From a virus (Duplodnaviria; Heunggongvirae; Uroviricota; Caudoviricetes): a DNA stretch of 15,354 nt. The stretch lies in the IMG/VR virus record IMGVR_UViG_2563366828_000009; one strand, 5' to 3'. The notes under the pieces were generated by a model. That model was not told where the DNA came from, ran no database searches, and was given only the letters and a program-made list of their open reading frames with translations. Positions 4,768 to 11,453 of the stretch are shown piece after piece. How positions within the stretch are numbered: position 1 is the first letter of the stretch; every line of letters begins with the position of its first letter. Made by a program: the position numbers and the translations under genes.

Positions 4768-4826
4768 TTAAAAACGGCGGCAGAGCAGTCACGGAGTAAA
4801 ACTGATACCGCCAAACGTCACCAGAA
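4768..4826 (-). ncRNA. dicF: DicF small regulatory RNA (Hfq-dependent sRNA of the dicB operon; targets ftsZ and other mRNAs)
   Basis: Reverse complement of 4767-4826 reads TTTCTGGTGACGTTTGGCGGTATCAGTTTTACTCCGTGACTGCTCTGCCGCCGTTTTTAAA, matching the DicF sequence I recall, including the 3' GC stem (GGCGG...CCGCC) and U-tract. Located between the ydfB/C-like region and dicB. Confidence 0.75.
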
Positions 4827-6440: not shown

Positions 6441-6470
6441 TTGACTTGAGATTCCTTGAGTGATTAGCAT
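6441..6470 (+). promoter_or_regulatory. candidate rightward promoter for the cro-like gene
   Basis: TTGACT (6441-6446), 18-bp spacer, TAGCAT (6465-6470). The operator inverted repeat overlaps the -10 and start region; GGAGG RBS at 6489 and ATG at 6497 follow. Confidence 0.35.
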
Positions 6471-6496: not shown

Positions 6497-6724
6497 ATGT
6501 TTAAATCAGACGTAATTAATTTTTACGGTACGAAAGCCAAAGTAGCGAAAGCTGCTGGCGTTGACCCATCTGCTGTTTCTCAATGGCAAGAGCTGGTTCC
6601 TGAAGGTCGCGCGATGCGTCTACAGGAGGCATCTGGCGGCGAGCTTCTGTATGATCCCAAGGTTTATGACGAATATCGTAAGACGAAGCGGGCGGGGCGG
6701 TTGAACAATGAAAATCACTCCTGA
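6497..6724 (+). CDS. dicC: DicC-like Cro-type regulator
   Basis: 75-aa product from the ATG at 6497 with a GGAGG RBS (MFKSDVINFYGTKAKVAKAAGVDPSAVSQWQ...). Helix-turn-helix region typical of Cro/YdaS-like proteins; divergent from the repressor. Confidence 0.8.
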   Translation: MFKSDVINFYGTKAKVAKAAGVDPSAVSQWQELVPEGRAMRLQEASGGELLYDPKVYDEYRKTKRAGRLNNENHS

Positions 6725-7229
6725 ACAGGCTCGTGAGGCTCTGGATGCCTGGATATGTCGACCAGGAATGACACAGGAGCAGGCGACGATATTAATCACT
6801 GAAGCATTCTGGGCTTTGAAAGAGCGCCCGAACATCGATGTTCAGCGTGTCACAGATGAAGGTGGCGCGGTTGATCAGCGAGCGCTTGGCGTTAATCGAG
6901 TGAAGATATTCGAACGCTGGAAGGCTATCGACACCAGGGATAAGCGTGAAAAGTTCACGGCGCTAGTGCCTGCAATTATGGAGGCTATCCGGATTAATGA
7001 TTTCAGGTTGTATCGTGAAATTAGTGACGGAAAAAGCATCACGTACATGATCGCCGGGTTAAACAAAGAATATGGCGATGTGGTGGAGTCCGGACTGCTT
7101 TTTGCTGATCCTGCCGTAGTGGATCGTGAAACTGACGAACTTATAGAAAAAGCAATTGCTTTCAAACTTGCGTATCGACAGCAATACCAACAAAAAGCTG
7201 GATGGAATTATGAGCCTTCTTTTTGCTGA
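6708..7229 (+). CDS. hypothetical early-operon protein in the cII position (possible YdaT-like regulator)
   Basis: 173-aa ORF. Start overlaps the cro-like stop and its end overlaps the start of the O-like gene, suggesting translational coupling within the early right operon. No recognisable catalytic motif; functional call is positional only. Confidence 0.5.
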   Translation: MKITPEQAREALDAWICRPGMTQEQATILITEAFWALKERPNIDVQRVTDEGGAVDQRALGVNRVKIFERWKAIDTRDKREKFTALVPAIMEAIRINDFRLYREISDGKSITYMIAGLNKEYGDVVESGLLFADPAVVDRETDELIEKAIAFKLAYRQQYQQKAGWNYEPSFC

Positions 7230-8175
7230 ACGCCCACTGGTTATAAACACACAGCTTGCGATGAAGATTGGCTTAAATGAAGCCATTGTGTTGCAGCAGT
7301 TGCATTACTGGTTGAGAGATACCAATTCCGGCATGGAATGTGATGGTGTTCGCTGGATTTACAACACAACGGAACAATGGCTGGAACAGTTCCCATTCTG
7401 GTCAGAGTCAACGTTAAAGCGCGCGTTTGCAAGTCTGAAAACGCTGGGGCTTTTGCGTTGTGAAAAGCTCAATAAATCAAAGCGCGATATGACCAATTTC
7501 TACACGATTAACTATGGAAGCGAGCTTTTAGATGATGGCAAATTGAGCGAATCCATCGGTTCAAAATGCGCCGCTCCATCAGGTCAAAATGACACGATGG
7601 AAGAGGTCAAAATGAAACGCTCCATTGGTTCAAAACGACCCAATGTCATCGGGTCAAAATGGCCCGATGATCCTACAGAGAATACAACAGAGATTACTAC
7701 AGAGAATAAAAACACTTTTCGTCCGGAAGCTTCGCAACCGGACCCGCAGACGGCTGAACAGGATTTTTTAATCCGGCACCCTGGCGCAGTTGTGTTTAGT
7801 GCGAAAAAACGCCAGTGGGGTAGCCAGGAGGATCTGGCGTGTGCGCAGTGGATATGGGGGCGGATCGTGGGTCTCTACGAACAGGCCGCCAGTGATGATG
7901 GCGAGATCATGCGACCAAAAGAGCCTAACTGGACTGTCTGGGCCAATGATGTGCGCACAATGCGGATGCTGGATGGCAGAAGCCACAGACAAATTTGTGA
8001 AATGTTTGGTCGGGTACAGCGGGATCCATTCTGGGTAAAAAACATCATGAGCCCGTCAAAGCTCCGCGAAAAATGGGACGAACTGGTCATCCGCCTGGGG
8101 CGTTCACCTGTACAGCGTTGTGTTAATCATATTTCTGAACCGGATACAGAAATTCCGCCTGGTTTCAGAGGATAA
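7210..8175 (+). CDS. phage replication initiator (O-like) containing an in-gene iteron origin
   Basis: 321-aa product from the ATG at 7210 (MSLLFAERPLVINTQLAMKIGLNEAIVLQQLHYWL...). Central region contains five iterons that encode repeated IGSK-type peptide units, as in lambda O/ori. Located downstream of cro and the cII-position gene. Confidence 0.7.
   Translation: MSLLFAERPLVINTQLAMKIGLNEAIVLQQLHYWLRDTNSGMECDGVRWIYNTTEQWLEQFPFWSESTLKRAFASLKTLGLLRCEKLNKSKRDMTNFYTINYGSELLDDGKLSESIGSKCAAPSGQNDTMEEVKMKRSIGSKRPNVIGSKWPDDPTENTTEITTENKNTFRPEASQPDPQTAEQDFLIRHPGAVVFSAKKRQWGSQEDLACAQWIWGRIVGLYEQAASDDGEIMRPKEPNWTVWANDVRTMRMLDGRSHRQICEMFGRVQRDPFWVKNIMSPSKLREKWDELVIRLGRSPVQRCVNHISEPDTEIPPGFRG
7551..7661. 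repeat. five 18-bp iterons (consensus about TCCATCGGTCAAAATG) forming a putative origin of replication, followed by an A-rich tract
   Basis: Copies at 7551-7568, 7574-7591, 7597-7614, 7620-7637 and 7644-7661, spaced 22-25 bp (about two helical turns). An A-rich ACAGAGA-repeat tract follows at 7675-7715. Confidence 0.6.
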
Positions 8176-8215: not shown

Positions 8216-8617
8216 GTGGCAAAAGTTTTTACACAAGAAGAGCGGGAAAAAATTAAAGGGCAGGTGGTGGAACTCGTGCGCCAGAGCGGTCGTGAGACGT
8301 TACGGCAACTGGAAGCTAAAACAGGTGCGACTAGATATCTGATGAGCGTTCTTGCCAGAGAGCTGGTAGCCAGTGGCGATGTATACAACTCCGGCTACGG
8401 GTTATTCCCGTCTGAACAGGCGCGTAAGGACTGGCAAAACGCCCGCAAAAAACTCTCGAGGGCAAAGGTGAAGAAAACAGCTGTGGTTGATCCGGACCTT
8501 ATCTGGTCGTTACCTGATGGAGAAATACGTCGCTACGACAGTCGCCTAAACATAATCTGTCGCGAGTGCCGGATGAGTGAAGTTATGCAGCGCATACTGG
8601 CATTTTATCAGGGATAA
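8216..8617 (+). CDS. hypothetical phage protein (133 aa), possible winged-helix-like N-terminus
   Basis: GTG start at 8216 preceded by a strong AGGGGGA RBS (8203-8209). Follows the O-like gene on the same strand. No recognised motifs. Confidence 0.55.
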   Translation: MAKVFTQEEREKIKGQVVELVRQSGRETLRQLEAKTGATRYLMSVLARELVASGDVYNSGYGLFPSEQARKDWQNARKKLSRAKVKKTAVVDPDLIWSLPDGEIRRYDSRLNIICRECRMSEVMQRILAFYQG

Positions 8618-8835: not shown

Positions 8836-10623
8836 TTAAGTCTGAGCCTCACTCTCTTGGCCATAAGTGGCTTGCCAGTATCTCGCCGTAGGGTTCATTA
8901 GAATGTGCAATACAAGCCACCATGCAAAAATGCAGGGAGGTTGATTGTAGTAACCGGCAGGCACATATCCGTGAGCTAGTTGATTTCGTAAATCACCATA
9001 GATTTTATCTACCAGTAAGGCCTGAAGATTGCCAATTATGTCTACGCCGAAAGCTTCAATAATCAGTGGATTATCTAGTAATCCCTTGAGTCCATTTCGC
9101 TCTTGCGAACCGTCCCCGTGAAGCTGCGATGGTTCCTCACCTTTAATTTTAGCCACATATCTCAGACTATTTTCGATCTGGGGAATCAACACGTGGCATG
9201 CCGTCATAAAATCTCCATTGAAACCGCAAACCATACCCTTGATGAAAAACTCTTCATGCCCAAACGGGATGAAGGGATGATTGATGAACATATCGCGAAA
9301 AAACGCCTCCGAGATTGGATATTTCATTGTGATCTCATCTGTAGCAGGAATAATTTGCCCAGCTACTGCCAACTCATGGTCGATACGCATTCTCGTCATC
9401 ATTATGGGCCAAATAACTGCCCCATTTGCATCATCAATCCCCAATCCTGCGGGTATGCGAGCAAGTGTCATTCCCTCATGATCAATATGTGTTGATCCAA
9501 ACATCCAAGCTATGCTGTTGGCCTTTTGTTCTATTGCTTGAGCCTTAAGTCTCTCAATGCTGGTTGGCCGACAGACCAGCATCGCAAGTCTGAAAACCAT
9601 ATCAAACATATCTCTTCCGACTACCCGACTCTTGGCTTGATGGACAATCTCACTAATATCTTGAGGGGGAGACTGAAGGATAGACATCTGGTGACGGGAT
9701 TCGATTTGGTAATCACGCATTTCTTCATACAGCGCAAGACGTTCTATTCGGGTTCCTGGAATATTAGCCAGTGCTTCAATAGCATTCTGCATGCAGGCTG
9801 CCGAAATCATACCGCCATCTTGGAATTTTGACTCTTCCAGATGTGTATCGGCAAGAAGCCGCCAGAATTCAAACTGTGTATCTCTGTCACAGCACCTATT
9901 CGCAATCGTGATTGCGGTTTTACAGGCATCGACGGCAAATGAAAATAATTTTTGAGCCAGATAGTTTTTTGTCAGAAACAGGAGTTCCTGGGCAATAAAA
10001 GATGGCTCACTCACTTTACAGTCGATATCGAGTTGCAGGAGTCGCAGCGGATAAGGTGAATCGCCTTGTTCTCTGGTACGTTCATACTCTGCTAGTAGAT
10101 GTGCCGAAAGCTGATCAAATTCATCCCTGAAATCAGTATTCTTTCGAAAAAAACAACACAGCCTAAGCGCACGCTCTAGGCGTTCTAAAGCACTAACCCA
10201 CGTCCCTTGCGATGTCATAATAGCTATACTGGACGCATAATAAGCACGGACTGCCAGCAAAGGAAAACGGATTCCACCAATTTTACGAACCCAAAGTGTA
10301 TCAGCAATACGAGCTTGAAGTTCGGGTAGCTCTATCGTCGGGCAAAATTGAGAAAGTACCTCCAGCGACAACCCGTTAATGTCATCCGGAATTGCAGATC
10401 TACCTTGGCTGCTTTGAAAGCACGGACCAAATGGTACCTGTGGATTTTCGGGACGAAAGTGAAAACCGCAAATATGGGTTAGCAGTCTTATCTCCGCTCT
10501 TCCATCACCTAGGCTAGAAAGATACTTTGTGATATCAAAGCAGGTAACTGGCAGCTTACTCTGGATTAAGGGGGATAAATCAATAGTGTTAAGTTCGTCG
10601 AGGCTGATATTAATATCGTCCAT
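8836..10623 (-). CDS. large orphan protein (595 aa) with C-terminal HEPN-like R-x4-H motif; candidate abortive-infection / anti-phage effector
   Basis: Long uninterrupted ORF on the strand opposite all flanking phage genes. ATG at 10623 has an AAGGTGA RBS. No Walker A/P-loop visible. C-terminal DLRNQLAHG (codons 8971-8988) fits the HEPN RNase signature R-[N/Q/H]-x3-H. Flanks are AT-rich non-coding DNA (8618-8835 and 10624-10990). Confidence 0.75.
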   Translation of the reverse strand: MDDINISLDELNTIDLSPLIQSKLPVTCFDITKYLSSLGDGRAEIRLLTHICGFHFRPENPQVPFGPCFQSSQGRSAIPDDINGLSLEVLSQFCPTIELPELQARIADTLWVRKIGGIRFPLLAVRAYYASSIAIMTSQGTWVSALERLERALRLCCFFRKNTDFRDEFDQLSAHLLAEYERTREQGDSPYPLRLLQLDIDCKVSEPSFIAQELLFLTKNYLAQKLFSFAVDACKTAITIANRCCDRDTQFEFWRLLADTHLEESKFQDGGMISAACMQNAIEALANIPGTRIERLALYEEMRDYQIESRHQMSILQSPPQDISEIVHQAKSRVVGRDMFDMVFRLAMLVCRPTSIERLKAQAIEQKANSIAWMFGSTHIDHEGMTLARIPAGLGIDDANGAVIWPIMMTRMRIDHELAVAGQIIPATDEITMKYPISEAFFRDMFINHPFIPFGHEEFFIKGMVCGFNGDFMTACHVLIPQIENSLRYVAKIKGEEPSQLHGDGSQERNGLKGLLDNPLIIEAFGVDIIGNLQALLVDKIYGDLRNQLAHGYVPAGYYNQPPCIFAWWLVLHILMNPTARYWQATYGQESEAQT

Positions 10624-11086: not shown

Positions 11087-11297
11087 TTTCATATTGGCGA
11101 GGTAACGGTAGTTAAGTAGAATGGCTGCGGGTGCTTGAGGCTATCTGCCTCGGGCATGAACACCAAAGGCAGATAGAGAAAAGCCCCAGTTAACATTACG
11201 CGTCCTGCAAGACGCTTAACATTAATCTGAGGCCAATTTCATGCTAGACACATGTAGGTTAGCCTCTTACGAGCCGAAAGGCAAGGAGAAGCAGGCT

Positions 11298-11453
11298 ATG
11301 AAGCAGCAAAAGGCGATGTTAATCGCCCTGATCGTCATCTGTTTAACCGTCATAGTGACGGCACTGGTAACGAGGAAAGACCTCTGCGAGGTACGAATCC
11401 GAACCGGCCAGACGGAGGTCGCTGTCTTCACAGCTTACGAACCTGAGGAGTAA
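11298..11453 (+). CDS. hokD: Hok-family type I toxin HokD (RelF)
   Basis: 51-aa product MKQQKAMLIALIVICLTVIVTALVTRKDLCEVRIRTGQTEVAVFTAYEPEE; AAGGAGAA RBS 7 nt upstream. Structured leader with a CTATCTGCC...GGCAGATAG hairpin, and 3' fold-back hairpins plus terminator, as expected for hok mRNAs. Confidence 0.85.
   Translation: MKQQKAMLIALIVICLTVIVTALVTRKDLCEVRIRTGQTEVAVFTAYEPEE

Follow-up and report, generated by a model that had tools for sequence, protein, structure and literature searches.

A putative iteron-type replication origin within the initiator gene of a Qin/mEp460-like lambdoid prophage

Where does replication start in a lambdoid prophage whose initiator gene carries a phased array of repeats within its own coding sequence, and do these repeats serve the DNA or the protein? 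The question is raised by a stretch of 15,354 nucleotides (IMG/VR virus record IMGVR_UViG_2563366828_000009; this whole 15.4-kb stretch is called the window). It represents the early region of a lambdoid E. coli prophage of the Qin/mEp460-like type, integrated beside rspB. The gene under study (7210..8175, + strand) codes for an O-like replication initiator of 321 residues; the open reading frame and its translation agree with a RefSeq coding sequence of the same coordinates. The protein matches PHROG 391 ("replication initiation O-like", 3e-92), and its RefSeq/NCBI name is "hypothetical protein". We conclude that positions 7531-7716, inside this gene, are probably the replication origin of the prophage, with a probability of about 0.85. 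This reading is adopted because the repeats exceed chance, because the constraint acts at the level of DNA, because the comparative anatomy agrees, and because the layout resembles that of lambda.

Anatomy, constraint and conservation of the putative origin

The array consists of five iterons (7554..7669), which are palindromes around GGTCAAAATGACC. A repeat finder places the copies at 7554-7576, 7577-7599, 7600-7622, 7623-7645 and 7647-7669, and Tandem Repeats Finder detects a period of 23 bp from 7552 to 7625. The unit is a palindrome of 19-23 bp with the consensus CATCGGGTCAAAATGACCCGATG. Copies 2, 4 and 5 are good palindromes, with 16-18 of 23 positions being self-complementary. A degenerate iteron 0 (GATGATGGCAAATTGAGCGAATC, 7531..7553) lies in register, 23 bp 5' of iteron 1. 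Its equivalent is clearer in two relatives (loci L004 and L259), and L004 has six clear copies. The preliminary description had reported five 18-bp direct repeats spaced by 22-25 bp. The five copies are confirmed, with a spacing of 23/23/23/24 bp, or about two turns of the helix, but the units are longer and palindromic, and the degenerate sixth copy at 7531 has to be added. All five occurrences of the core GKTCAAAAYG in the window are within the array; 0.19 are expected, and at most two were found in any of 200 shuffled sequences.

The iterons are followed by an A-rich tract (7673..7716) with three 12-bp units of the form ACAGAGAnTACw, a presumed DNA-unwinding element; the ACAGAGA repeats that had been described at this place are thus found. 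The three units (ACAGAGAATACA) occupy 7675-7710, and Tandem Repeats Finder assigns 2.8 copies with a 12-bp period to 7675-7708. The tract consists of 51% A and has a G+C content of 32%. No other 40-bp stretch of the gene is as unstable (-45.9 kcal/mol, compared to a window mean of -55.2 with a standard deviation of 3.8; 99.6th percentile), and in a sampled stability profile the most stable stretch of the gene lies directly 3' of it. In terms of the reading frame, the iterons correspond to codons 115-153 and the 12-mers reach codon 168. A lambda-like palindrome was sought after the A-rich tract, and reading of the sequence yielded only a weak one (GTCCGG-N11-CCGGAC, about 7721-7743), in a stretch that is not conserved among alleles. 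An Rfam search returned no match in the origin region. A literature search with the sequences of the iterons and 12-mers retrieved nothing but unrelated primers.

Several observations address whether this region is maintained for its DNA or for the peptide that it encodes. The iterons are read in all three frames, since 23 is not a multiple of three. Copies 1 and 4 encode SIGSK and copy 5 encodes VIGSK, so that the claim of an IGSK-type peptide forced upon the protein by the repeats holds for these three; copies 2 and 3, however, encode PSGQND and EEVKMK in the other two frames. Diversity was analyzed in 59 distinct 321-residue alleles from related loci. At third codon positions, the values for the N-terminal domain, the C-terminal domain and the C-terminal tail are 0.132, 0.180 and 0.209, respectively, whereas the iterons have only 0.033 and the 12-mers 0.014 (pooled: 0.027 in the origin versus 0.160 in the two domains). 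At codon positions 1 and 2, the origin is not better conserved than the domains (0.027 versus 0.020). The codon periodicity of variation is lost in the origin because third positions are conserved there while the first two positions are not more so. The CAAAATG core of the iterons is almost invariant among these alleles (0.00-0.03 per site), and the A-rich tract is nearly invariant, too. Codon choice was analyzed for the TExT peptide motif (64 cases from 37 non-redundant loci). Thr is encoded by ACA in 62 of 64 cases (background 30%) and Glu by GAG in 63 of 64 (background 41%). As the third codon is AnT, which specifies Ile, Thr, Asn or Ser, the nucleotides are fixed while the amino acid is free. 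Reading frames, diversity and codon choice agree in indicating that the constraint on iterons and 12-mers acts on the DNA and not on the peptide.

Individual alleles vary in this region. One allele (P0100) has one extra TENT/12-bp unit. In a Shigella flexneri locus (L052), the gene is truncated at residue 127, within the iterons.

The protein is a hybrid. It has an N-terminal domain with a RepA_N-like fold, a C-terminal domain that is homologous to that of lambda O, and 20 last residues that resemble DnaT; a Pfam search assigned no family to any part of it. The N-terminal domain (residues 1 to about 105; 7210..7524, + strand) is presumed to bind the iterons. It yields a confident winged-helix model, whose structure is matched best by the N-terminal, iteron-binding domain of plasmid initiators from the RepA_N family; Pfam matches to this domain were found neither in the window protein nor in four distant homologs. 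The linker (residues about 106-178; 7525..7743, + strand) is encoded by the origin DNA and is predicted to be disordered. In a full-length AlphaFold2 model, its predicted local distance difference test (pLDDT) scores are 23-34 for residues 101-180. The C-terminal domain extends approximately from residue 179 to residue 297 (7744..8100, + strand). Its homology to the C-terminal domain of lambda O was established by BLASTP (34% identity over 148 residues, E-value 3e-27, for residues 147-294 against the C-terminal half of lambda O) and by matches to PHROGs 2357 and 277. Some relatives carry the PHROGs label "DnaD-like helicase loader". This assignment was rejected for the window protein, which lacks PF07261, a domain that is present in a staphylococcal homolog (L010, 5.7e-8). 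YdaU from the Rac prophage was also rejected as a relative, as it belongs to another family (DUF1376).

The N-terminal domain is widespread. A tblastn search with residues 1-112 detected relatives in 155 phage records (Vibrio, Staphylococcus, Bacillus, Bacteroides, Klebsiella, Pseudomonas, Erwinia, Listeria), and relatives also occur in prophages of many bacterial orders. The 120 best-listed database entries for this domain all have 97-219 residues and many are flagged as partial, which is consistent with gene calls or assemblies that break in the repeats. Among eleven annotated phages, nearly all have 3-6 repeats with a spacing of 22-24 bp, starting about 310-330 nucleotides into the gene. 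For a systematic count, a phased array was defined as at least three 11-mers spaced by 21-25 bp after residue 100, and 88 homologous loci were searched. A chain of at least three copies is present in 54 of the 88 loci and one of at least four in 22; the arrays have 3-6 palindromes. Control stretches of equal size gave 0/89, 1/88 and 0/88. The loci come from Enterobacteria, Pseudomonas, Campylobacterales, Bacillaceae, Lactobacillaceae and Clostridia.

Across these loci, the sites have a palindromic consensus of 17 bp in which the CA-AAA-TG centre is retained. Its arms vary by lineage yet stay complementary (GGGT/ACCC, AGGG/CCCT, GGTG/CACC, TGTT/AACA, GGAT/ATCC, TGAT/ATCA, TACC/GGTA). Such compensatory changes would be expected for sites that are read by a dimer and whose reader co-evolves in its specificity. 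The 12-mers follow the same distribution. Of the 88 loci, 55 have CAGAGAnTAC 3' of the iterons (31.7 kb searched), but only 6 have it anywhere in the 429 kb outside of this part. Successive 12-mers are spaced by 12 bp in 45 of 54 pairs. Natural recombinants are informative in this respect. Locus L259 has the same N-terminal domain, iterons and 12-mers but a different tail, and a P gene is present. In locus L273, a different N-terminal domain is joined to a C-terminal domain and tail of the same kind; the iterons of this locus differ, and the 12-mers are absent. The array in L273 (2779-2934; GACCCGTCAAAATCTGAC) has a spacing of 15 bp and retains a TCAAAAT centre. In Klebsiella phages, a match at the DNA level is confined to the part of the gene that encodes the N-terminal domain and the origin. 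Downstream partners differ throughout the family, being a primase-helicase, a DnaB-like helicase, an IstB/DnaC-like ATPase, lambda P or nothing at all. To judge from these comparisons, the putative origin travels with the N-terminal domain across phyla, irrespective of the C-terminal domain or of partner genes.

Alternative explanations and a possible mechanism

The alternative that survives best is that the region is a true origin by descent that is dead in this prophage, a cryptic Qin-like remnant; we regard this as a minor possibility. The insertion beside rspB is at the same site as that of Qin, the cryptic K-12 prophage, and the truncated gene in Shigella flexneri demonstrates that decayed copies exist. 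On the other hand, this prophage has an intact gene with intact iterons and 12-mers, and many genomes have identical copies of them. The window is collinear with an isolated phage, HannyBb, from int through Q. The earlier suggestion that the module may still work is plausible, given the intact gene and the presence of the same module in HannyBb.

Plasmid iterons serve both initiation and control. It is conceivable that the repeats bind the initiator only for control (autoregulation, titration/handcuffing, incompatibility/exclusion) and that replication starts elsewhere. In addition, the start of synthesis at the array is itself deduced from sequence, and two reports (PMC3349717, PMC4488673) describe that cloned ori-lambda fragments inhibit phage growth. 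This alternative is nevertheless improbable. A conserved and easily melted 12-mer tract abuts the iterons in most family members, and no second array of the iteron core exists in the window. Furthermore, the layout matches the one described for ori-lambda, where this region is the start site (PMC7466680).

It is still less probable that the sites are bound by another protein (the cII/YdaT-like protein, DUF977 or a host factor) and function as a transcription, partition or packaging signal. Palindromes with A-tracts would suit many dimeric DNA binders, and DUF977 has a weak match to a PHROG annotated as "DNA binding protein". However, the only constant neighbour of the repeats across the 88 loci is the N-terminal domain encoded by the same gene, while the flanking genes differ. 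We give hardly any weight to the view that the array is a peptide repeat, or a tolerant linker with slippage repeats and no role as DNA: the region does encode a disordered linker and its copy number varies between alleles, but this view is already contradicted by the use of three frames, the lack of codon periodicity, a synonymous diversity six-fold below that of the flanks, the fixed TExT codons with a free third amino acid, and arms that covary across phyla.

The assignment of 7531-7716 as an origin has to be weighed against a number of points that speak against it. Iterons 1 and 3 are poor palindromes (12 and 10 of 23 positions self-complementary). A scan for DnaA boxes found none in the origin and one chance-level site outside of it. 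No P, DnaC-like or DnaB-like gene follows the initiator in the window, where the next gene codes for DUF977. Fewer than three phased copies were found in 34 of the 88 loci, as counted by a crude detector. Allele P0018 lacks exactly 31 residues (93 nucleotides, corresponding to four iteron periods); either fewer sites suffice or this copy is dead. The Mann-Whitney p-value for the pooled third-position contrast (1.8e-7) overstates independence, as the alleles are related and mosaic, although the contrast is internal to the same sequences. The full-length structure model has low confidence (pLDDT 52.8, from a shallow alignment) and was used solely for the disordered linker and not for the fold search. 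Finally, experimental work on members of the N-terminal-domain family was not found in the literature. Despite these points, the description of the region as an iteron-type origin inside an O-like initiator gene is well supported on the sequence level by the constraint on the DNA, the C-terminal homology and the same architecture in distant phages.

If the region is an origin, it may operate as follows. By analogy to lambda and to iteron plasmids, dimers of the N-terminal domain would bind to the iteron palindromes. Recurring every 23 bp, the A4 tracts at their centres would bend or wrap the DNA, so that a complex similar to the O-some may form. The resulting stress would open the ACAGAGAnTAC tract beside the iterons, and the 12-mers may be recognized in a strand-specific manner. 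Transcription that proceeds rightward from the promoter candidate on the cro side would cross the origin and may help, as it does in lambda. The peptide encoded by the origin would be no more than a disordered linker. More speculatively, the lambda-O-like C-terminal domain together with the DnaT-like tail (…IPPGFRG) might recruit DnaB-DnaC of the host without the need for a P protein from the phage.

The DnaT-like tail and the helicase step

With neither a helicase or loader gene after the initiator gene nor DnaA boxes in the origin, precedent does not explain the step that follows origin opening. A possible clue is provided by the C-terminal tail of the initiator (QRCVNHISEPDTEIPPGFRG, residues 302-321; 8113..8172, + strand), which matches the C terminus of DnaT. 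When compared to residues 160-179 of E. coli DnaT, 14 of 20 residues are identical (70%) and 18 of 20 are similar, with …SEPDxxIPPGFRG-COOH in common. The tail also matches PDB entries 2ru8, 6aep and 9zbt. The NCBIfam model for DnaT is matched at positions 160-179 alone, with 16.3 bits compared to a cut-off of 201. IPxGFRG-COOH is kept in alleles that differ in the preceding residues. The protein was rejected as a DnaT, since the match is limited to its last 20 residues. This DnaT-like tail is also the basis of RAST-style names in phage records, "Primosomal protein I" being an example.

A census of tails covered 253 fetched loci that encode this C-terminal domain; many of them are near-identical, so that lineages outweigh the counts. 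A DnaT-like tail was found in 227 of the 253 loci. In 185 of these, no loader or helicase gene follows within 700 nucleotides downstream; an IstB/DnaC-like ATPase follows in 42 and lambda P in none. A lambda-type tail (…W…G.[ED]D.L; lambda O: …DWIYGVDL) occurs in four loci, and lambda P follows in all four. A scan of viral contigs with the C-terminal-domain alignment retrieved only near-identical loci and added little diversity; a second scan, with another allele, was more useful. A natural series exists on similar early-region backbones: O (lambda tail)-P-DUF977 in L259, where the backbone is the same, O (DnaT tail)-DnaC-like-DUF977 in L157, and O (DnaT tail)-DUF977 in the window. We infer that the loading route is set by the tail and that DnaC-type loaders are the partners of the DnaT-like tail.

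Other tails occur in the N-terminal-domain family. Several members (L010, L014, L037, L041, L056, L068, L079 and others) have acidic/aromatic tails that resemble the C-terminal peptide of SSB, examples being …EEDFRFDDET, …DEWDFDF, …KDDLPF and …DIVLPF.

A survey from 2025 lists 34 of 314 lambdoid phages as encoding an O homolog only, and describes replication in these phages as "not yet understood" (PMC12315714). How DnaT reaches DnaB/DnaC has been described as unknown (PMC13377028), and a contact between DnaT and DnaC as undocumented (PMC5778457). The DnaT literature examined does not state a contact of the extreme DnaT C terminus. A tempting speculation is that the tail recruits the helicase in this P-less initiator, although we rate the chances of this proposal as somewhat short of even. 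A wider proposal, which is equally tentative, has two parts: the DnaT-like tail would be a portable element that hands the opened origin to a DnaC-type loader (either the host DnaB-DnaC or a phage-encoded DnaC homolog), and the 12-mers would be a sequence-specific element for unwinding or loading. If the first part is true, it would explain how "O-only" lambdoid phages replicate, and the DnaT C terminus would be an undocumented contact from the restart preprimosome to DnaB-DnaC. If the second part is true, phage origins from Proteobacteria to Bacillota would have a common element that goes beyond mere AT-rich DNA. Short C-terminal docking peptides may be a general route by which such initiators recruit host factors.

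Prophage context and comparison with known systems

The gene order in the window is int, xis, exonuclease VIII, dicB/DicF, cI-like repressor, cro-like, cII/YdaT-like, initiator, DUF977, hok/sok and Q-like antiterminator. HannyBb covers 83% of the window with 97.3% sequence identity and carries the replication module at 97.4%. mEp460_ev081 and PhiR42_1 are also close to the window and are isolated phages with the same module. The gene region is present in 3026 of 5426 complete E. coli genomes.

A pR-like promoter candidate (6441..6470, + strand), obtained from a consensus scan only, is located ahead of the cro-like gene (6497-6724), the cII/YdaT-like gene (6708-7229) and the initiator gene; the gene order is taken from RefSeq and HannyBb. 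Transcripts from this promoter would cross the origin. Directly 3' of the initiator gene is the gene for DUF977 (8216..8617, + strand; PF06163, 6e-27; PHROG 142), which carries the PHROGs label "Ren-like exclusion protein". DUF977 adjoins replication genes in O-DUF977, O-P-DUF977 and O-DnaC-like-DUF977 modules and also in Rac (ydaW). A gene for a DUF4209 protein of 595 residues (8836-10623, - strand) is located between DUF977 and hok/sok. HannyBb has other small genes at this place, so that the DUF4209 gene may be a moron or accessory insertion. Rfam matches in the window are DicF RNA (4775-4826, - strand) and sok antitoxin RNA (11129-11303, + strand), and hokD is annotated beside sok in RefSeq; DicF and sok are as expected for a Qin-like prophage.

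The assignment would define the origin for a very common type of E. coli prophage. The same grammar would accompany one origin-binding domain across phyla: palindromes with a CA-AAA-TG centre in phase, and 12-mers of the form ACAGAGAnTAC after them. Origins in many phages could be located by this simple rule. The assignment also provides a testable lead on two questions, one of which is helicase loading in the O-only lambdoid phages. The origin itself is of classical lambda design, and its existence is unsurprising. What sets this variant apart are the uncharacterised origin-binding domain, the conserved 12-mer unwinding tract and the combination of a P-less phage with a mimic of the DnaT C terminus.

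The RepA_N initiators of Gram-positive plasmids (4pta, 4pql, 4pt7, 5kbj) have the same winged-helix fold at the N terminus. They differ in that the window protein has no Pfam match, is 11-18% identical to them, has a different C-terminal domain and resides in a phage and not in a plasmid. In SPP1 (G38P, with oriL in gene 38) and in the staphylococcal phage 80alpha (gp20), the origin is also located within the gene for the organizer. In the 80alpha record, positions +235 to +460 of gp20 are annotated as a putative origin that has repeats and, after them, an AT-rich repeat tract; a gp20 deletion is not complemented in trans. G38P and gp20 differ by their C-terminal domain (Phg_2220_C, PF09524), which is absent in the window protein, and by being followed by their own loader or helicase. 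They were rejected as homologs, because BLASTP detects no similarity to the N-terminal domain of the window protein, and are only analogous. With DnaT, the likeness is confined to the last 20 residues, including the terminal IPPGFRG-COOH; nothing else is common to the two proteins.

In its layout and C-terminal domain, the system resembles ori-lambda, from lambda and the Stx phages. The comparison to lambda that was made in the preliminary description is valid for the layout, but it does not extend to the N-terminal domain, which does not belong to the lambda O family, nor to a P-type gene. The N-terminal domain of lambda O is unrelated in sequence to that of the window protein, which lacks PF04492 (lambda O: 5.7e-36) and is aligned to it by hhalign with a probability of 0.1%. 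The window further differs by the conserved 12-mers in its A-rich tract, by the lack of a P gene and by its DnaT-type tail. In both cases, the initiator gene harbours the origin in its middle, between the parts that encode the DNA-binding and the C-terminal domain. The iterons, 4-6 in number, have dyad symmetry, a length of about 19 bp, a central A-tract and a spacing of 20-24 bp (lambda: ATCCCTCAAAACGAGGGAT; window: CATCGGGTCAAAATGACCCGATG). An A-rich, strand-asymmetric tract is located 3' of the iterons, and that of the window aligns loosely with that of lambda. The peptide encoded by the origin is a linker, the C-terminal domains are homologous (34%), and transcription from pR crosses the origin in lambda and would do so from the pR-like candidate in the window.

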